Source: a virus (taxonomy: Duplodnaviria; Heunggongvirae; Uroviricota; Caudoviricetes). From it: a stretch of 46,439 bases of DNA. This document shows positions 27,502 to 37,837 of the stretch, in pieces (within the stretch, counting starts at the first letter, position 1; each line of letters starts with the position of its first letter). The stretch lies in IMG/VR virus record IMGVR_UViG_2579779067_000003; one strand, written 5' to 3'. The notes beneath the pieces were generated by a model that was not told the DNA's origin, ran no database searches, and was given only the letters and a program-made list of their open reading frames with translations. The translations under genes were made by a program, and so were the position numbers.

Positions 27502-27675
27502 CTAGATTAAATCAATCTTGATATCATAGCTTTCAAGACCAGTCATTTTTTCCCGTGCAGTAAACTGGATACTGGTAACTTCTTTCCCGGTCTTTTTCTT
27601 AAGCTCAATGATTTTTTTTGTTATATATTCAGAAATATCTGCTTCTGTTTTTGTTTTTAACTCTTCAATGTTCAT
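27502..27675 (-). CDS. gnsB: GnsA/GnsB-family protein
   Basis: MNIEELKTKTEADISEYITKKIIELKKKTGKEVTSIQFTAREKMTGLESYDIKIDLI (57 aa); track ORF has a 31-codon upstream extension. Confidence 0.8.
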   Translation of the reverse strand: MNIEELKTKTEADISEYITKKIIELKKKTGKEVTSIQFTAREKMTGLESYDIKIDLI

Positions 27676-27847
27676 CATTTCCTCTTTTAGTCTGTTATGA
27701 CTGTCCTGGTACACAGTAGTGTCAATTATATGGAGCAAACGTATAAAAGATAAGATGAAACATCGCAATAATCAACATACGACGGTCTAAATTTCACACA
27801 AACAGATAAAGATGATTATCATTTATTATCAATGCATTAGAATCAAA

Positions 27848-28078
27848 TCAATTCAAGAGTCTCATTGCTGCTTCCAGAATTTCTTCTGAAGTTACATGTC
27901 GATCCGCTGCTACATAAATGACTTTATGATCTCCGGTCAGAGATGGAAACCCTGCGGCCATTACAGTAAGGTGTGTTTTTTCGCCATTTGGATATTCACG
28001 CATGATGGTGTTAACTCCAGTCATCGCTGGCACTACCACTGCTGGTTCAGAGTTAAAAAAAACTATGATTTTTTTCAT
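27848..28078 (-). CDS. ynfN: YnfN-like small protein
   Basis: MKKIIVFFNSEPAVVVPAMTGVNTIMREYPNGEK...; ATG at 28076-28078. Confidence 0.55.
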   Translation of the reverse strand: MKKIIVFFNSEPAVVVPAMTGVNTIMREYPNGEKTHLTVMAAGFPSLTGDHKVIYVAADRHVTSEEILEAAMRLLN

Positions 28079-28349
28079 GATGTTACCGTAGTATGTGAGT
28101 ATCCATCGAATAGATACCAAGCAAAAAAGCTCCCGAAGGAGCCTTCATTTTCACTTTTTTAAATCCAACGACAGACGGCTGGCATTTAAGTATTGTGAAA
28201 TATTATCAAATGTAATCATCATTGATTTACAAAAGATACATTTTGCCCCGAAAGGATTCATGTCAGAAACATCAAAAGATGATGTTCTATACTGGGAACC
28301 ATGACAACACGGGCATCTAAAGTGAATATGGTTTGTAATATTGTCTACC

Positions 28350-28562
28350 TCAAAGCGCCACTACATGAACAGCGGCAGGACCTTTAGGTCCGTTCTCAAT
28401 ACCAAATTCAACTTCCTGATTCTCAGTTAATGTTTTGAAATCGTTGCTCTGAATTGCTGAGAAATGGACAAACACATCTTTGCTGCCATCTTTCGGCGTG
28501 ATGAAACCAAAACCTTTTTCAGGGTTAAACCATTTCACTAAACCAGTCATTTTGTTAGACAT
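28350..28562 (-). CDS. cspI: Cold shock protein CspI (CspA family)
   Basis: 70 aa [38 protein letters not shown]... with RNP1/RNP2 cold-shock motifs; long 5-prime untranslated region upstream. Confidence 0.9.
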
Positions 28563-30671: not shown

Positions 30672-31394
30672 CTAAGAAAATCTTGATAAATATTGGTGCG
30701 GAGGCACACCAAAATATCCTCTAAAAACACTTACAAAATATGATGCATTGTCATACCCGCATATTCCCGCCACCTTGCCGACAGTATGGTTACTGTAGAT
30801 CAATAATCTTTGCGCCATCATCATTCGTTCTTCAAGAATTAATTTACTAAACGATAATCCTTCGTCTTTTAATTTTCTTTTTAACAAACTCTCGCTCATA
30901 TATAATCTTGAAGATATATCACAAAGTCTCCATGACGCTGAGATATCCGAGTGAATAATAGCCTTAACTTTACAACCTAAGCTATTAAGACTTCCGAACA
31001 AAAAACTTTGCACTATTTTCTCTGAAGATAAGACAGCAAGACATGCAAGTGATATTTGATTTCTAACTACATCCACGGTTTTGCTATCACAATTCAAGCA
31101 TGCAACCAAGTTCTTTAACAATGAAAAATCTTCACATTCTACTATCAAGTATGACGGATAAAACCTTCTTACAGAAAAAGGTGAGAGTGTGTAGTTTTTA
31201 AAGAAATCATTAACTGTTTTCTCCTCAACATCTACGATCATTAGATGATCTGTATTTGACGAAAAAAGATCTTTTAAATTGTATTCAATGAGGACAGCAT
31301 TTCCTTTTTTAAACAAAATATCTTCTTTACCAATTCGGACACCAAACGAGTTCAACACCAAAATGATAGAACATATGTATGGCATATTATCCAC
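30672..31394 (-). CDS. AraC/XylS-family transcriptional regulator (AT-rich cargo gene)
   Basis: 240 aa with C-terminal AraC-type HTH region (…MAQRLLIYSNHTVGKVAGICGYDNASYFVSVFRGYFGVPPHQY); AT-rich gene and upstream region. Confidence 0.8.
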   Translation of the reverse strand: MDNMPYICSIILVLNSFGVRIGKEDILFKKGNAVLIEYNLKDLFSSNTDHLMIVDVEEKTVNDFFKNYTLSPFSVRRFYPSYLIVECEDFSLLKNLVACLNCDSKTVDVVRNQISLACLAVLSSEKIVQSFLFGSLNSLGCKVKAIIHSDISASWRLCDISSRLYMSESLLKRKLKDEGLSFSKLILEERMMMAQRLLIYSNHTVGKVAGICGYDNASYFVSVFRGYFGVPPHQYLSRFS

Positions 31395-31791
31395 CTGATA
31401 TCATTGGGGTTACACCAGGTAAGTATAGGTGGAAAATCAATATTCGCCAGTTCAACAATAAGGAAAATCTCATTGCATCACAACTATAAAACCATGTGTT
31501 TAACTCACAAAAAACAAATCATTAAACTAATCTGTTATATTATAATAGCTGCGTGCAATAATAATATTATATGCTCTTAATATTCACTTGAAATATCTTC
31601 ATATAAAAACAGATTGAATAAAATCTTTTGGGGCTGGTATGTTTACCAACATTAAATTGCATCTCAATGTTTTCTTTAGCGTGAACAGGATTTTTATACA
31701 AACTGACACTATGGGCATCATAGCGTAGTTTTTACGATTGTAAATATCCTGCATACAGGAACTCATCACTTTCAGATGATATCGCATACAG

Positions 31792-32751
31792 TTAATTCAC
31801 CATCAGTCTTAGAGCCAGTTCTTCCGGATAGGGATCGAAGTAATTCTGTGTAAGCAAGTAATCATTAGGATACTCACCCAGATAATGCTTCAGCAGAGTC
31901 AACGGCGCAAGAAGAGGCAATGTGCCAAAGCGATAGTTAAGTATAACCTCGCTCAACTCTTTACGCTGGCGTGTACTTAAGTAATTACTAAAATACCCCT
32001 GTATATGCATCAGCACATTCGTGTGATTTTTACGTGATGCTGGTTTTCTGAGAATCGCCATCAGATTATCACGATACACCTCAAAGTATGATTCAAGGTC
32101 CGCCCACTCGTGTATTGCAGCCACAAATGGTCCCATATCTTTATAGCCTGCCTGGCTATGCGCCAACAACTGAAGCTTATAACGACTATGAAAAGCTAAT
32201 AACTCTCTTCTTGATAATTTCTCCTTGTAAAGATGATTGAGCTCATGCAAAGCAAAAACTCTTTCAATAAAATTCTCACGAAGCACTGGATCATGTAATC
32301 GCCCATCCTCTTCAACCGGTAGCCAGGAAAACTTTTCCATCAAAGTGCTCGTAAATAGTCCCACTCCATCTTTACGACCTCGATTACCATTTTCATCATA
32401 GACACGCACGCGCTCCATGCCACAGCTGGGAGATTTAGCACAAACCACAAACCCCGATACATCCTTTAATTTGTCCATATAAGAACGACTAAACTCTGTC
32501 ATTCTCTCTGTCACATCCTCATTCTGGTCGTGGCTGAAACACATCCGTATATTTCCTTGCTTCGAGCGCACAAGTCGTAGAGCAGGACGCGGAACTGGCA
32601 GCCCTATAGCCATTTCCGGACATACTGGTCTGAATGTTACCCATTCCACTAATTTGTCCATTAAAAAGTCATCTCTTTTGTGACCACCATCAAAACGAAC
32701 AGCAGAACCGCCCAAACAACCGCTGATCCCAATCACAGGTTTTTTTATCAT
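31792..32751 (-). CDS. DUF523/DUF1722 two-domain protein (TudS/YbgA-like)
   Basis: N-terminal GISGCLGGSAVRFDGGHK motif typical of DUF523, conserved Cys at about 12, 44, 105; C-terminal half YbgA-like. Confidence 0.65.
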   Translation of the reverse strand: MIKKPVIGISGCLGGSAVRFDGGHKRDDFLMDKLVEWVTFRPVCPEMAIGLPVPRPALRLVRSKQGNIRMCFSHDQNEDVTERMTEFSRSYMDKLKDVSGFVVCAKSPSCGMERVRVYDENGNRGRKDGVGLFTSTLMEKFSWLPVEEDGRLHDPVLRENFIERVFALHELNHLYKEKLSRRELLAFHSRYKLQLLAHSQAGYKDMGPFVAAIHEWADLESYFEVYRDNLMAILRKPASRKNHTNVLMHIQGYFSNYLSTRQRKELSEVILNYRFGTLPLLAPLTLLKHYLGEYPNDYLLTQNYFDPYPEELALRLMVN

Positions 32752-32943
32752 TTCCTCCCCCTTGACTAATTCATTAACACATAAACTTTGTAATGCACGG
32801 ACTAAATTGCCTTTCTGGCTTCATCACTGACAATTTTTCTGTTATGGACTATTCCTAATATAGTAGGAAAGTTCTTTAAGTGATCGGTCGTACTCATCTA
32901 TCTTTCATACTTACTCTCAACTATCAAAAGTACAGGATTTATT

Positions 32944-33468
32944 ATGAAGTTATGGCCTGTGTTGACTGGCATTGCACTCTCTTTCACTCTTATAGCATGT
33001 AAGGCCCCGACACCACCTAAAGGTGTGCAGCCGATTACAAATTTTGACGCCAACCGCTACCTCGGAAAATGGTATGAAATAGCTCGCCTCGAGAACTGGT
33101 TCGAACGTGGTCTGGAACAAGTCAGCGCTACTTATGAAAAACGGAACGACGGAGGGATTCGCGTACTTAACCGTGGATACGATCCAACGAAAAACAAATG
33201 GAGCGAGAGCGAAGGTAAAGCATACTTTACTGGAGATACTAAAACTGCAGCGTTGAAAGTTTCGTTTTTTGGCCCCTTCTATGGTGGCTATAATGTAATC
33301 AAGCTGGATGATGAGTATAAGTATGCTCTTGTCAGTGGTCCGAACAGAGAATACCTATGGATTCTGGCAAGGACCCAAACTATTCCAGATAATGTAAAAG
33401 CAGACTATGTGCGTACCGCTCAAAAGTTGGGATTCAATGTCAATGAACTATTATGGGTTAAACAATAA
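32944..33468 (+). CDS. blc: Bacterial lipocalin Blc-like outer membrane lipoprotein
   Basis: 174 aa; signal peptide with lipobox LIAC; NFDANRYLGKWYEIARLENWFERGLE and SFFGPFYGGYNVI motifs as in E. coli Blc. Confidence 0.85.
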   Translation: MKLWPVLTGIALSFTLIACKAPTPPKGVQPITNFDANRYLGKWYEIARLENWFERGLEQVSATYEKRNDGGIRVLNRGYDPTKNKWSESEGKAYFTGDTKTAALKVSFFGPFYGGYNVIKLDDEYKYALVSGPNREYLWILARTQTIPDNVKADYVRTAQKLGFNVNELLWVKQ

Positions 33469-33496
33469 AATCCCCACCCGAAATGATACTTATTAG

Positions 33497-33523
33497 AAAA
33501 AAACCAGCCTTTGGGGAGGCTGG
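33497..33523 (-). terminator. Candidate tR-prime terminator downstream of Q
   Basis: Plus-strand A7 (33497-33503) then CCAGCC-TTTGGGGA-GGCTGG; on minus transcript hairpin followed by U7. Confidence 0.55.
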
Positions 33524-33582
33524 CTAAATCAGGAAACAAGCTGTTATATGATAATAACTACGTTGCGATTCCAACATTTAAA

Positions 33583-33623: not shown

Positions 33624-34001
33624 TTATTTCGAACAATCAGCATCCATCTCCAATCGGAGATCCAACACCATCAGCATGCCCTCCACTACGCCCTCAGCTT
33701 TCTGGAGCATCCTGCCAACCCAACAATCAGATCGCCCATGCTTACGTGCAAGCGCCATAAAAGTCATGCCGCCGACATAATAGTCCACCAATAAATCATG
33801 TAAATCGCTGTTGTTTTTTTTCAGGCGAGCCATACATTCACAAATGATCATCGCGTCATCGTCACAGCATTGCGGACGAGATCTTACTTTTGAAGGAATT
33901 AATCCCTTAAAACCGGCGGCAATGGACGACCAGGTCACATCTTCATGATTATTAGCCGCCCATGCCCCCCAACGCTCAAGAACCATCTGAATATCACGCA
34001 T
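33624..34001 (-). CDS. quuQ: Antitermination protein Q (small Phage_antitermQ type)
   Basis: [60 protein letters not shown]...; ATG at 33999-34001; track start is TTG extension. Confidence 0.75.
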
Positions 34002-34018
34002 CAACTTACTCCACAAAA

Positions 34019-35068
34019 TTAGGCCAGCACACCAATTGCCAGCGCGCGATCGATAAATCGAAAAATCAGCTCCAGTTGGGAGCCATACTTCTCTTCAAAT
34101 GCCACGGTACCCGTATGCAACTCGTCGTGATGCTTTCTGCACAAAGGCAACACAAAGAGATCATGTGCTTTGGTTCCCATTCCGCCCTGCCCGTGACCAA
34201 TCAGATGATGCGGATCGTCGGCTGGCATACCGCAGCAAGCACACGGCTGTGTCTTAACCCAGCGTGTGTATTTCTCCTTAACCCAACGGTGACGTTTAGG
34301 CAGCTTCATGAAAGATTCCGGAGACTCAGGATCAACGGTGATGCTTACCACCGTTTTTTCCTGTGATGGGTTTTGTCGCTGGTGGGCGTGAGGCAACGGT
34401 GCAAGATTTTTTGTGCGCTGTTTCAATATGCTGGTGGCGGTCTGCTCTCCCGGTACGATGTCGCTTTCGCGGTACACCGAGCAGTTTTTTTCCGCTGGTA
34501 ATCCCAGCGAGCGACGTAATACCGCTTCCGGTAGCGCGTCCGCCACCTGATTGCGGACCGCCCACCAGGATAATTCAGCCAGAGATAATTCACGCTCCTG
34601 CGTACCGCTTATTGCGTGACCGATGACGTCAATCATCCATGCTGACAGGTTTTGATGAGCAAGTTGCTCGAGTGATTCGGATGTCTGGTCACGCAGCTGG
34701 TTGTCGCAGTGCCAGCACAACACCATTGCGCCGGTACCATAACGGTGAATAACGGTTTCGCTGTGATGATAATCGCCGTGTGGCCACTGGCAGGATTTAA
34801 TATGGCGCAACAGCCAGTCAGACAATGCACCAGCACCACCAGCAGTACGAATTACCCGTGCATTACTGAAAAACGGCAGCAATGTTTTGTCTTCCACCAG
34901 CGGCTGGCGAACGGCAGGAACGACCCCGGACGGCAGATTACGCATGCTTTTCGGTTCCGGCTCCACCAGTACCCGGGTATTGTGGAATACCGGCATGGAT
35001 TCACGGCCCGGCTTAACGACCACCAGCCCGAGTTCCGGTACCAGAACAGGTCGAAGTAATACCCGCAC
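34019..35068 (-). CDS. ydfU: YdfU-like protein (DUF968)
   Basis: 349 aa with C-terminal Cys/His cluster ([43 protein letters not shown]); nin-region position. Confidence 0.7.
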
Positions 35069-36280: not shown

Positions 36281-37837
36281 TTACCTATCAAACAACGGAT
36301 GTATTACAAAATCTCTCTTCATATCAGTAATATCCAAATTAGGTTTATCAAAAGATGAATATATAATTAAAGATGCTGTTTTCCTTATGCCAACCACGCC
36401 TACGACGAACCAGACTTTAAGTAACTCCTCAAAATTCATCAATATTTTTGTATGTTGATCATCCTCTTTAACTACAGTCAATCTATCAAGTAAATGCTGC
36501 GATATATCATCTTTTACTGCTTGTCCTATGTTTGAGACTGTAAAATCAGAAAATGAAATCAAGGAAAGCACATCCAAATATTCTTCGATAAACGGATATA
36601 TGCTTTTCCATTCTGTAACCAAAGCTCTCTTTCTGGACGAATAAAATTTCTCTTCGGCAATTAACACAATATTTTCATTCATGTTAACCATACCATCGCA
36701 CTCAGAAAGACATATATTTACGAAATTAATTGCATCTCTAGGCCTAAGCATTGTTCTGTCAAGGATATAATCATCTGCTCCAATACCTTCAACTGTAAAA
36801 TTAAAAATATCCTTCATTAATACAGACTTATTTGATTGATATCTATTTTTAACCAAATGGTTAATTCTAGCATCAATAATCTCTCTTATTTCCGTTTTAT
36901 TCCATGATATGGAATATATTAAAGATTGATCTTTCTCATCCTGCCTTAAACTACTTTTATAAATTCCCATTAAAATATCTGTTCTTATTGATATCAGAAC
37001 CTTAACCGACTTTATATCTAATAATTCTCGAAAGGCCTCAAGAAGAGCATTAATAAAGTCATATCTGATGGCGCTCGTGCTTAACCAAGATTTATCTAAA
37101 TCATCGATACTGATTACTATTCTAACCTGGTTTGAGTCAGCGAACTCCTCTTTAAGTATTTTAATAAGTTCTTTTTGTTTAAAAAGAAGTTCACGACTCA
37201 CATAACTTGAAGTTTCTGATTGTATTTTGGCTGTATCAGAATTAGATATTTTACCACCCACACCAACAGCGGAATTTCCGAGTTTGAATGACAAATCACT
37301 TTCAAGCTTGTTACTTATTTCAATGAGCGCTTTATCATTGAAGAAATTTTCTTTAAATTGTTCAATATAATCATTCGCAACTTCTGGTTTATACGGTTTC
37401 TTCTTACCACCAATAAGATCTTTAATTTCCTCAAAAAAGCTTTGATAGGAAGAACGATAAACGGCTGGTATAACTTTCATAAGTAATACATGCAGCCATA
37501 ACGATTTATAAAACCCACGTAAATCTATCCCTTTCGAGATCAAATCAGATATAAACACATTGTTATTAATATGTTCAAATATCGTATTTTCTGCCTCTAT
37601 TGTGTCATGCAGCTTAATATTTCCTTTGTCTAATATTTTTTTAAGCAACGCAGACTTACCGCTTCCTGTTCTTCCAACAATAATTCTTCTTGTAAAATCA
37701 GGATTCTTCTCAGTAGAGTCAAAATTCACAATACCTTTAAAAACATTGGACTCATAAAAACAAGCATCAAGATAAGAATCAGTTTCCGCCTCTAATTTTC
37801 CAATCTCATCATTATTTCTGAATTTATAGGCATTCAT
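36281..37837 (-). CDS. AT-rich P-loop NTPase, KAP/PifA-like by motif (candidate phage-exclusion protein); function unproven
   Basis: 518 aa; Walker A GRTGSGKS at about residue 55, Walker B-like IVISIDDLDK about 180 residues later, RPRDAINF arginine-finger/sensor-like motif; sampled 60-nt lines are roughly 25-30 percent G+C versus about 45-50 percent in tail genes (hand counts). Confidence 0.6.
   Translation of the reverse strand: MNAYKFRNNDEIGKLEAETDSYLDACFYESNVFKGIVNFDSTEKNPDFTRRIIVGRTGSGKSALLKKILDKGNIKLHDTIEAENTIFEHINNNVFISDLISKGIDLRGFYKSLWLHVLLMKVIPAVYRSSYQSFFEEIKDLIGGKKKPYKPEVANDYIEQFKENFFNDKALIEISNKLESDLSFKLGNSAVGVGGKISNSDTAKIQSETSSYVSRELLFKQKELIKILKEEFADSNQVRIVISIDDLDKSWLSTSAIRYDFINALLEAFRELLDIKSVKVLISIRTDILMGIYKSSLRQDEKDQSLIYSISWNKTEIREIIDARINHLVKNRYQSNKSVLMKDIFNFTVEGIGADDYILDRTMLRPRDAINFVNICLSECDGMVNMNENIVLIAEEKFYSSRKRALVTEWKSIYPFIEEYLDVLSLISFSDFTVSNIGQAVKDDISQHLLDRLTVVKEDDQHTKILMNFEELLKVWFVVGVVGIRKTASLIIYSSFDKPNLDITDMKRDFVIHPLFDR

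Follow-up and report, generated by a model that had tools for sequence, protein, structure and literature searches.

Why does a lambdoid prophage carry a gene for a Blc-type lipocalin on the strand opposite to its late genes, and where did this gene come from? Both questions are raised by the window, that is, the whole stretch of viral DNA analyzed here (46,439 nucleotides). The existence of such genes is already known: blc is listed as a common lambda moron (Mathieu et al. 2020), and RefSeq and phage records annotate lipocalin genes of this kind. The phage-type blc was found in 1045 of 5426 complete E. coli genomes (about 19%), including those of the commensal E. coli HS and the laboratory strain BL21. 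In other words, roughly a fifth of complete E. coli genomes hold an extra lipocalin gene. What this analysis adds is that the gene is not a host duplicate, that it is paired with an experimentally validated RudS, and that the pair comes from a MerR-like-regulated stress locus of other enterobacteria whose regulator was lost.

A Blc-family lipocalin beside the late antiterminator gene

The gene and its signals were placed as follows.

32944..33468, plus strand: blc-like gene, an ATG-to-stop ORF of 174 amino acids encoding a Blc-family lipocalin lipoprotein precursor
32944..33000, plus strand: predicted type II signal peptide, read from the translation (N-terminus MKLWPVLTGIALSFTLIAC, followed by K)
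32989..33000, plus strand: lipobox L16-I17-A18-C19, read directly in the sequence

The ORF is a member of the Blc family. Its product is identical to RefSeq WP_000780584.1, and in a 100%-identical locus (L001) the gene is annotated as 'lipocalin family protein'. The protein matches the Pfam family PF08212 (Lipocalin_2) over residues 35-174 (E 7.5e-43; 146.4 bits against a cut-off of 24), and the NCBIfam family PRK10477 ('outer membrane lipoprotein Blc') over residues 1-174, which align to positions 1-174 of the 176-position profile (312.6 bits against a cut-off of 267). The lipocalin motif G41-K-W43-Y44-E-I-A-R48 is invariant across alignment A3, as is the segment L138-W-I-L-A-R143 with its conserved Arg near the C-terminal end of the barrel. 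Residues 20-174 align without gaps to solved E. coli Blc (3MBT, 1QWD, and 2ACO; E 8.3e-67 to 3MBT), and this gapless alignment points to a lipocalin fold. An AlphaFold2 model built on a shallow 24-sequence alignment was poor (mean pLDDT 58; seven strands and a C-terminal helix), and the family assignment at the structure level relied on the gapless sequence match, not on this model. After Cys19, position +2 is taken by Lys and not by Asp, so the +2 rule predicts sorting to the outer membrane; under the established lipoprotein rules, the precursor would be both processed and sorted as a lipoprotein.

The host element is a lambdoid prophage at the Qin site, in which blc lies between Q and the lysis genes. 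Three neighboring genes are central to the argument.

33624..34001, minus strand: late antiterminator gene Q, Phage_antitermQ family (Pfam E 8e-51), annotated as such in L001, at the start of the late region
31792..32751, minus strand: rudS ('YbgA family'), Pfam 2-thiour_desulf and DUF1722, a TudS domain fused to DUF1722
30672..31385, minus strand: gene for an AraC-family (YdeO/GadX-like) regulator, Pfam HTH_18/HTH_AraC, between rudS and the holin gene

The minus strand carries Q, DUF968/ydfU, rudS, the AraC-like gene, and the holin, lysozyme, terminase, head, and tail genes, and blc is on the plus strand. A preliminary description had proposed a Blc-type lipocalin lipoprotein, encoded on the prophage and antisense to the late operon. 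Both parts of this proposal are borne out, the first by family matches above both cut-offs together with the lipobox and the lipocalin motifs, and the second by a late operon that lies wholly on the minus strand.

The neighbor rudS is oriented in the sense direction relative to late transcription. RudS is a tRNA 4-thiouridine (s4U) desulfidase, and its cluster cysteines C12, C44, and C110 are all present in the phage protein. Escherichia phage 1H12 (hit H36) shows 91.4% nucleotide identity over the region, and the RudS ortholog from this phage experimentally reduced s4U in E. coli tRNA (PMC11417400). The AraC-like gene, whose best NCBIfam match (YdeO) falls below the cut-off, is the third cargo gene of the module. 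The GC content is 43.8% in blc, 43.1% in rudS, and 33.5% in the AraC-like gene, lower than in ydfU (53.9%) and in the structural genes (52.6%). The cassette is present in only 12 of the 72 phage records that match the region; in other phages, the slot after a related Q holds an ompD/nmpC porin gene in the same orientation as blc, or nothing. By its absence from related phages at this slot and its deviating base composition, blc has the marks of a moron.

Relation to chromosomal Blc and origin of the gene

Is the phage gene a copy of the host gene? The phage protein is 59% identical to E. coli chromosomal Blc (102 of 174 residues, no gaps), and the two genes are about 67% identical at the DNA level. 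Chromosomal blc lies next to ampC/sugE and was found in 5425 of the 5426 complete genomes. Because of the 59% identity and the near-universal presence of the chromosomal gene, phage blc is a true extra copy, and an assembly duplicate of chromosomal blc is ruled out. The pairwise alignment thus agrees with the preliminary description in that the protein is clearly divergent from chromosomal Blc, and the gene is not the chromosomal blc of the same strain, which lies elsewhere. The term 'second-copy' used there stands in the sense of an extra copy but not in the sense of a paralog of the host gene, as the gene is a xenolog by the sequence comparisons below.

The two proteins are alike in length, lipobox position, Pfam and NCBIfam family, and the GxWYEIAR and other motifs. 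They differ in clade, as E. coli Blc belongs to the ampC/sugE-linked clade and phage Blc to the MerR-linked one. The +2 residue is Lys in phage and MerR-linked Blc but Ser in sugE-linked Blc, residues 49-51 read 'LEN' in phage Blc and 'FDH' in chromosomal Blc, and residue 131 is Ser in the former and Cys in the latter. Furthermore, the phage gene resides on a prophage and has a GC3 of 0.41, whereas that of chromosomal blc is 0.58.

Evidence for the clade assignment comes from a neighbor-joining tree, in which the phage proteins fall inside a merR-linked enterobacterial clade (Enterobacter, Klebsiella, and Cedecea; 96% bootstrap). Likewise, at each of the 12 clade-diagnostic positions the phage protein has the residue of the merR clade and never that of the sugE clade. 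Relatives at 72-80% identity adjoin merR and often also rudS (RudS 69-72% identical), and those at 57-60% identity adjoin sugE/ampC. In the MerR-linked clade, blc is divergent from a gene for a MerR/MlrA-like regulator, and rudS is often found beside it. For example, the unit rudS-(HIUase-like)-merR<->blc occurs in Enterobacter, Leclercia, Raoultella, and Buttiauxella, and in Klebsiella and Cedecea the merR-linked blc adjoins a lipid-modification cluster (SDR / amine oxidase / DUF1365 / CFA-synthase-like). One locus with the order rudS-TTR-merR<->blc (L007) encodes a RudS that is 72% identical to the phage protein. By our account, native E. coli has neither RudS nor the MerR-linked Blc clade. 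Phage blc is not an ortholog of the ampC/sugE-linked E. coli gene, its clade and its residues both being of the MerR type. It is a xenolog from the MerR-linked clade that was captured together with rudS.

The phage locus resembles the MerR-linked units in that these hold the closest sequences (72-80%), the same 12 diagnostic residues, a neighboring rudS, and a promoter region with matching spacing and partial boxes. It differs from them in that merR and the HIUase-like gene are missing, rudS and blc abut divergently, and the boxes are degenerate. Synonymous sites between the phage gene and its MerR-linked relatives are saturated, and GC3 is 0.41 in the former and about 0.8 in the latter, which points to either an old capture or an unsampled donor.

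The relation to chromosomal Blc bears on one explanation of the gene, namely that it is a back-up or dosage copy of host Blc that performs the identical job (stationary-phase, RpoS-dependent handling of lysophospholipids) and provides more of it. The common family, equal length, and 59% gapless identity are what such a copy would show, and mobile second blc genes next to ampC on plasmids, found at 364 plasmid places, offer a parallel. The -10-like element upstream of the phage gene ends in ACT and resembles sigma-S-type promoters, which prefer a -10 element of this kind. However, the phage gene comes from the other clade, and both Blc clades coexist in the genome of Buttiauxella izardii (L015 and L021), which argues for non-redundant roles. 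The 12 positions that separate the clades include residues 50-51, beside the pocket-entrance residue 52. The plasmid copies, for their part, belong to the Citrobacter/sugE-linked clade (66.9% nucleotide identity to the phage gene). A simple back-up role is consequently considered improbable.

Upstream region, transcription signals, and selection

How might the gene be expressed? The following elements flank it.

32752..32943, no strand: rudS-blc divergent intergenic region, 192 bp, 34% GC
32857..32869, no strand: box AATATAGTAGGAA, identical at 11 of 13 positions to the conserved chromosomal box AATATACTACGAA (alignment A2)
32906..32911, plus strand: candidate -10 element CATACT, 32 nt before the ATG (alignment A2; putative function)
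33495..33525, minus strand: terminator-like hairpin with U-tract, between the Q stop codon and the 3' end of blc (terminator scan)

The 192-bp region presumably holds the blc promoter, and possibly also a remnant of the merR promoter that now faces rudS. It aligns without internal gaps to chromosomal merR-blc intergenic regions in alignment A2, and its blc-proximal half is nearly invariant among phage alleles. The candidate CATACT is in register with TACACT (in TGCACTACACTT), which is conserved among the merR-linked blc genes of chromosomes, and the 2E9 allele has AATACT at this position. The candidate is without a recognizable -35 and without the -13 C of its chromosomal counterparts. The box AATATAGTAGGAA and the 8-nt box with the -10 (TCATACTT / CTACACTT) are 35 nt apart, as in the chromosomal regions, and AATATAGTAGGAA is possibly a relic of the promoter or operator of merR. 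These shared boxes are visible only by multiple alignment, as BLAST of the phage against the chromosomal intergenic regions gave no match. A 12-bp inverted repeat (AACTTACACAAA..TTTGTCCAAGTT) found upstream of chromosomal rudS is not clearly kept in the rudS-proximal half of the phage region. A scan of the 192-bp region for consensus sigma-70 promoters found none; promoter candidates near TTGACT (32762..32767) were rejected, having spacers of 15 or 21 nt.

On the other side of the gene, the hairpin folds on the minus strand with a dG of -14.9 kcal/mol (z -3.6; z -0.2 for the plus-strand context), and its U-tract is present on the minus strand only. The hairpin is conserved in Lambda_2E9. Its orientation is such that transcription of the late strand would stop shortly before reaching blc, and it may be tR' or the end of the Q transcript. 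A search for pR' in the stretch from the Q stop codon to the hairpin found only the weak matches TTGCTG-17-TAACAT and TTGGAA-15-TATCAT, which left pR' unplaced. The annotated 434B record has no pR' feature, and the regions downstream of Q in PhiR29_1 and DLP12 are not homologous to that of the window. Because pR' was not located, late read-through into blc is deduced from gene order only. The orientation of blc, the shielding hairpin, and the conserved promoter spacing with its partial boxes together suggest expression in the lysogen.

The module is stable across viral genomes. AraC(-) RudS(-) Blc(+) Q(-) is the sole arrangement in 80 IMG/VR loci wherever the contig sequence reaches, with all four genes complete in 56 of them, and the module occurs with different nin regions. 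In 74 of 75 viral loci, rudS and blc are separated by 192 bp. Among alleles, blc has a dN/dS of 0.07-0.14, with dS of up to 0.19, and rudS one of 0.11-0.19; blc is under purifying selection. Since all 80 viral-contig copies are intact and dN/dS is this low, the intact lipocalin ORF is far more than chance.

Could the gene still be a functionless passenger, captured with rudS or serving as filler beside Q, silent or neutral, and persisting by block recombination of the module? Some observations fit such a fate. No consensus promoter was found, IS1 sits inside the lipocalin gene in some strains (H10 and H11), and the Qin-site prophage is often degraded, as by IS3 in BL21. The window-type allele, which is common to E. 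coli HS and BL21, has three radical changes (R52W, G65E, and P145Q), each at a position that the compared relatives conserve; residue 52 of Blc has been described at the pocket entrance, and there the window allele has W in place of R. Over blc and rudS, the lineage of this allele has 8 non-synonymous to 8 synonymous changes and its sister lineage has 1:9, a difference that is no more than suggestive of relaxed selection (Fisher p = 0.087). Because of the three substitutions and these change counts, the window's own copy may be altered or decaying. Against neutrality of the gene as a whole stand the intact state of all 80 viral-contig copies, the low dN/dS at an appreciable dS, the conserved upstream region with its fixed 192-bp spacing, and the presence of the gene in actively plaque-forming phages (Lambda_2E9, 1H12, and IdasGreatGrand). 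A mere passenger is thus quite unlikely. In BL21, rudS is destroyed by IS3 and blc persists. This strain is a natural rudS knockout with an intact blc, so the two genes need not act together.

Proposed role and comparison with known systems

The reading that we favor, with slightly better than even confidence, is that blc is a functional Blc-family lipocalin moron of the lambdoid prophage that was captured with rudS, lost its regulator, and is expressed in the lysogen as a lipid-binding protein. The precursor would be lipidated at Cys19 and anchored in the outer membrane on its periplasmic side. E. coli Blc binds lysophospholipids (PMC7026729), and the cavity of the phage beta-barrel would by analogy bind amphipathic lipids such as lysophospholipids or fatty acids. 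Oxidized lipids or tetrapyrroles are further possible ligands, E. coli Blc possibly binding heme or tetrapyrroles (PMC8177097). With the regulator lost and rudS and blc placed back to back, blc is most likely made in the lysogen from its own, now unregulated, promoter, and the hairpin terminator would shield it there from the late strand. Read-through by Q-modified polymerase from the opposite side would shut off blc by antisense transcription, and the same read-through would co-express rudS, in sense, with the late genes.

What would the lysogen gain? The idea in the preliminary description that a phage copy could modify the outer membrane is speculative. The benefit may be, for example, protection of the envelope under near-UV, photo-oxidative, or stationary-phase stress. 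Genes for RudS are found within MerR/LitR light-responsive operons (PMC11417400), and MerR-like regulators govern blue-light responses, including that of a CFA-synthase gene, in V. cholerae (PMC5241685). The word 'lipocalin' has 0 occurrences in each of these two papers, and a literature search found nothing relevant on lipocalin in LitR/MerR light regulons or on DUF1365 / lipocalin / photolyase clusters. Because no literature found ties a lipocalin to a MerR/LitR light regulon, the stress link rests on gene neighborhood.

One specific, and rather unlikely, version of the stress link is that rudS and blc form a regulator-less near-UV/photo-oxidative cassette, lifted from a MerR-like-controlled unit and fitted with an antisense switch at induction. 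Blc, free of its regulator, would protect the lysogen envelope, for instance by sequestering photo-oxidized lipids or porphyrin photosensitizers. UV-triggered induction would then bring Q-dependent read-through that turns blc off by antisense and rudS on. By removing photo-crosslinkable s4U from tRNA, RudS would keep the translation of late phage proteins going in irradiated cells.

Another potential role is receptor masking or superinfection exclusion, in which the lipocalin made by the lysogen would block or change a phage receptor, or the envelope, and thereby keep related phages from adsorbing or injecting. Lipoproteins are known to act in this manner, as Cor and Llp do on FhuA. The lipoprotein gene has the orientation expected for lysogen expression, and the same slot elsewhere holds porin genes (ompD/nmpC) whose products are themselves phage receptors. 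Moreover, membrane proteins dominate lambda morons, among them a sie gene (Mathieu et al.). However, PADLOC models matched nothing among Blc, RudS, the AraC-like protein, and two neighboring proteins, which gives no support for a known defense system, and a literature search found no lipocalin tied to superinfection exclusion. The phage protein also retains the whole Blc-family sequence together with the diagnostic residues of its non-phage homologs, a pattern more in line with a preserved cellular role than with a newly gained protein-protein interaction. Exclusion is judged distinctly improbable.

The contribution of this analysis to a very common cargo gene is modest but concrete, in the form of a testable hypothesis (UVA, blue-light, and oxidative phenotypes; constitutive expression). 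Lysophospholipid levels and inflammation in the gut have been associated with variation in chromosomal Blc (PMC7026729), and effects of this kind could thus be confounded or modulated by a second, divergent Blc of phage origin.

Among known systems, lambda Bor offers a likeness in organization, being an outer-membrane protein whose gene lies antisense inside the late region. Bor is an antisense, lysogen-expressed lipoprotein that confers serum resistance. Its expression in the lysogen is established, whereas that of phage blc is deduced from its setting. NmpC of DLP12 and OmpD of PhiR29_1 are encoded in the identical slot, directly after a related Q and antisense to the late genes. These porins form channels, whereas phage Blc is a predicted beta-barrel that would bind small ligands, and it has no sequence or fold relationship to Bor, NmpC, or OmpD. 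The plasmid ampC-blc-sugE units, such as those of blaCMY-2 regions, are similar in that they bring a mobile extra Blc-family gene into E. coli. They differ in clade, as noted above, and in company: the plasmid blc rides with a beta-lactamase gene, and the phage blc rides with rudS.

An additional lipocalin gene on a Qin-site prophage

The window is a lambdoid prophage that occupies the Qin attachment site. Strain YZ3E2001 has a 100%-identical stretch, whose annotation spans the tail genes to an integrase adjoining rspB. All phage genes flanking blc lie on the - strand and blc is the sole + gene there, a gene order that agrees with the preliminary description of blc as antisense to the late operon. 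The features are as follows.

30672..31385, -, AraC-family gene
31744..31717, sigma-70-like promoter (10/12) upstream of the AraC-family gene
31792..32751, -, 'YbgA family' gene (rudS)
32857..32869, phage box AATATAGTAGGAA (alignment)
32906..32911, CATACT, included in the phage box TCATACTT, which lies 35 nt beyond AATATAGTAGGAA (alignment)
32944..33468, +, blc-type ORF, 174 codons from ATG to stop (ORF reading)
32989..33000, +, lipobox L16-I17-A18-C19 at the end of the N-terminus MKLWPVLTGIALSFTLIAC, followed by Lys at +2 (translation)
33097..33099, 33136..33138 and 33376..33378, +, blc codons 52, 65 and 145
33502..33525, hairpin between the Q stop codon and the blc 3' end, with a U-tract on the - strand only (last U 33495)
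33624..34001, -, antiterminator Q (Pfam E 8e-51)
34019..35068, -, DUF968/ydfU
Further genes, all -: those for holin, lysozyme and Rz, followed by terminase, head and tail

The protein was first described as a Blc-type lipocalin lipoprotein that diverges from chromosomal Blc. This was correct. In profile searches its sequence hits Pfam Lipocalin_2 (E 7.5e-43) and, along its full length, NCBIfam PRK10477 'outer membrane lipoprotein Blc' (312.6 bits against a curated cut-off of 267 bits). Residues 20-174 align without gaps with three experimental structures of E. coli Blc, 3MBT, 1QWD, and 2ACO (E ~1e-66), a lipobox is present, and 102 of 174 residues (59%) are shared with chromosomal Blc. The chromosomal sequence used was verified against a real ampC-blc-sugE locus. 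The residue after the lipobox Cys is a predictor of lipoprotein sorting, and the Lys at this position predicts outer-membrane sorting of phage Blc. The protein would thus be lipidated, sent to the outer membrane, and probably bind amphipathic lipids like E. coli Blc, whose ligands are lysophospholipids (PMC7026729) and possibly tetrapyrroles (PMC8177097). The comparison sequence from E. coli EC21Z-151 (L002) has Glu84 where the phage protein has Asn84; G84E reportedly lowers LPE binding and is enriched in IBD samples (PMC7026729).

Of 5426 complete E. coli genomes, 5425 carry chromosomal blc. Phage-type blc (at least 90% nucleotide identity over at least 80% of gene length) was found in 1045 complete E. 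coli genomes, HS and BL21 among them, and in 12 sequenced free phages, e.g. Lambda_2E9, 1H12, and IdasGreatGrand. Because the chromosomal gene is near-universal and separate, these counts rule out an assembly artefact, and phage blc is a true additional copy in ~19% of strains. In strains 027_SK3 and ABW_S38 (matches H10 and H11), an IS1 lies inside the lipocalin gene itself. On a 2113-bp contig binned as 'Candidatus Nanosynbacter sp.' (JARKOR010000135.1, locus L008), the lipocalin gene shares 97% identity with that of the phage; this is almost certainly a mis-binned E. coli prophage fragment and not a Saccharibacteria gene.

Phage blc is thus a real, correctly described, and already annotated cargo gene. 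In the locus rows examined, from >1000 matching genomes, RefSeq labels its product 'lipocalin family protein' or 'Blc', and phage records label the protein 'Lipocalin Blc'. Mathieu et al. 2020 counted blc ('a bacterial lipocalin') among the morons and reported it from over half of the lambda phages in their infant-gut set (PMC6969025). A literature search found no paper testing the function of phage-type blc. New here are the source clade, the derivation from a rudS-merR-blc unit that lost its regulator, and the peculiarity of the window allele. The reading of rudS and blc as a stress cassette is a specific hypothesis.

Source clade and loss of the regulator

The nearest non-phage proteins (72-80% identical) come from Enterobacter, Leclercia, Cedecea, Klebsiella, Raoultella, Buttiauxella, and Pantoea. 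The blc genes of Cedecea and Klebsiella are divergent from a MerR/MlrA-like regulator, behind which lies a SnoaL / SDR / amine oxidase / DUF1365 / CFA-synthase-like / DUF2878 cluster. A rudS-(HIUase/transthyretin-like)-merR<->blc unit occurs in Enterobacter, Leclercia, Raoultella, Buttiauxella izardii, and one metagenomic contig. The rudS of these chromosomal units is 69-72% identical to the phage 'YbgA family' gene, and in Enterobacter bugandensis unrelated genes lie on both sides of the unit. Blc proteins of 57-60% identity, including those of E. coli, Salmonella, and Citrobacter, all adjoin sugE and often ampC. In a neighbour-joining tree, three phage alleles fall within the MerR-linked clade (96% bootstrap). 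Furthermore, 12 alignment columns split this clade completely from the sugE-linked one, and the phage protein has the MerR-clade residue in 12/12. A plain dosage copy of host Blc is therefore an unlikely reading, since phage Blc comes from a separate clade and both clades coexist in one genome, as the two blc kinds of Buttiauxella izardii do (L015, L021).

Clade placement together with rudS linkage argues that the phage cassette is the rudS and blc ends of a rudS-merR<->blc unit from which the regulator was removed. A chromosomal variant in Huaxiibacter (L017) likewise lacks merR. Synonymous sites between phage and chromosomal blc are saturated and GC3 is 0.41 in phage blc vs ~0.8 in Enterobacter and Klebsiella genes, which points to an old capture or to an unsampled donor. 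Upstream of chromosomal rudS, 3' of merR, a conserved 12-bp inverted repeat, AACTTACACAAA-N8-TTTGTCCAAGTT (L012, L015, L017, L018; alignment A1), is a candidate operator of the MerR/MlrA-like regulator; it is not clearly kept in the phage.

A consensus scan found no sigma-70 promoter in the 192-bp rudS-blc intergenic region. When this region was aligned with ten chromosomal merR-blc intergenic regions, the chromosomal ones displayed three conserved boxes (TCTCAATATACTACGAAT, ATGAAG, and TGCACTACACTT), and the phage region aligned with no internal gaps. Its box spacing equals that of the chromosomal loci, with 31 nt from TCATACTT to the ATG, and an AGGA Shine-Dalgarno lies 6 nt ahead of the blc ATG. 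The blc-proximal half is almost invariant among phage alleles. We take the phage region as a putative blc promoter that has diverged from its chromosomal homologue and that would be unregulated because the regulator is gone.

Conservation of the module and its rudS partner

AraC-like(-) RudS(-) Blc(+) Q(-) was the sole arrangement among 80 IMG/VR contigs, 56 of which had all four genes complete; the rest were mostly cut by contig ends or had partial copies. In 74/75 loci, rudS and blc are 192 bp apart, and the module is found in combination with either of two nin regions (ydfU/DUF968 or ylcG-rusA-ninX). The fixed module, the blc ORF intact in 80/80 contigs, and low pairwise dN/dS among phage alleles (0.07-0.14 for blc, 0.11-0.19 for rudS) indicate that phage blc is under purifying selection. 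The intact copies and low dN/dS also make it improbable that blc is in general a silent passenger, though the window allele itself may be one. The window protein, identical to that of HS and BL21 (WP_000780584.1), carries derived R52W, G65E, and P145Q at sites conserved in other phage alleles and the chromosomal relatives compared; this allele accounts for 34 of the 80 viral-contig copies. R52 is reported to lie at the ligand-pocket entrance (PMC7026729). Changes in blc and rudS combined were 8 non-synonymous to 8 synonymous on the window branch vs 1/9 on the sister branch (Fisher p = 0.087). At most this hints at an altered specificity or at relaxed constraint, the Qin-site prophage being inherited vertically and often degraded.

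The phage 'YbgA family' gene encodes a full TudS+DUF1722 fusion, i.e. RudS, with cluster cysteines C12, C44, and C110 intact. RudS is a [4Fe-4S] desulfidase that converts tRNA 4-thiouridine to uridine; E. coli itself lacks RudS, and that of phage 1H12 reduced s4U in E. coli tRNA experimentally (PMC11417400). The 1H12 match (H36) is 91.4% identical to the window region in nucleotides. Light-responsive operons under MerR/LitR regulators are a common setting of rudS genes (PMC11417400). In V. cholerae, MerR-like regulators mediate the blue-light photo-oxidative response, and a CFA-synthase gene is among those that blue light strongly induces (PMC5241685). Neither paper mentions a lipocalin. Gene neighbourhood suggests that the phage Blc clade is tied to such MerR/LitR light regulons. 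In BL21 (L092, NZ_CP060121.1 1554693-1561217), an IS3 cuts rudS to a 147-nt remnant and leaves blc and Q whole; BL21 is therefore a natural rudS knockout. The AraC-family gene (33.5% GC), between rudS and the holin gene, is part of the conserved viral-contig module, and its product has weak YdeO/GadX/HilD-like matches below NCBIfam cut-offs.

Transcriptional setting and proposed role

A putative late-strand terminator lies ahead of blc. On the - strand, the hairpin has a dG of -14.9 kcal/mol and a z of -3.6 (terminator scan, fold), and it is a candidate for tR' or for the Q transcript end. It would halt unmodified late-strand transcription 27 nt (U at 33495) to 34 nt (stem base 33502) short of blc. 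Because the late promoter pR' could not be placed, traversal of blc by Q-modified polymerase would follow from the usual lambdoid layout. In the proposed model, blc would be expressed in the lysogen, and upon induction converging late transcription would silence it. The sense-oriented rudS, directly downstream of Q, would then be co-expressed with the late genes. Stx phages carry stx genes in the same kind of position, so rudS may be a late-expressed phage function.

Alternatively, lipocalin made by the lysogen could mask receptors or exclude superinfecting phages. This is quite doubtful: there was no PADLOC match, no literature support was found for a lipocalin in exclusion, and phage Blc retains the diagnostic residues of its chromosomal, non-phage relatives.

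Other cargo accompanies the module. Next to hokD, a 518-aa ORF (36281..37837, -, ~30-33% GC) has the appearance of additional early-region cargo or of a defence-like gene. Its annotation in the 100%-identical RefSeq stretch (L001) reads 'P-loop ATPase, Sll1717 family', and PADLOC gave no match for it. Between the lysis and terminase genes (~27502..28562, -, 32-39% GC) lies a small stress-related cargo cluster, annotated in L001 as gnsB, ynfN, ynfR, ymcF, and cspI.

The site just behind Q seems to be a general docking place for converging outer-membrane-protein cargo genes. In DLP12/434B (L088) and PhiR29_1 (L174, 1190..2287), whose Q genes are related to that of the window (84-86% nucleotide identity), a porin gene (nmpC and ompD, respectively) occupies the slot of blc. 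Phage blc resembles these porin genes in both slot and antisense orientation, and it has the same organisation as lambda bor.
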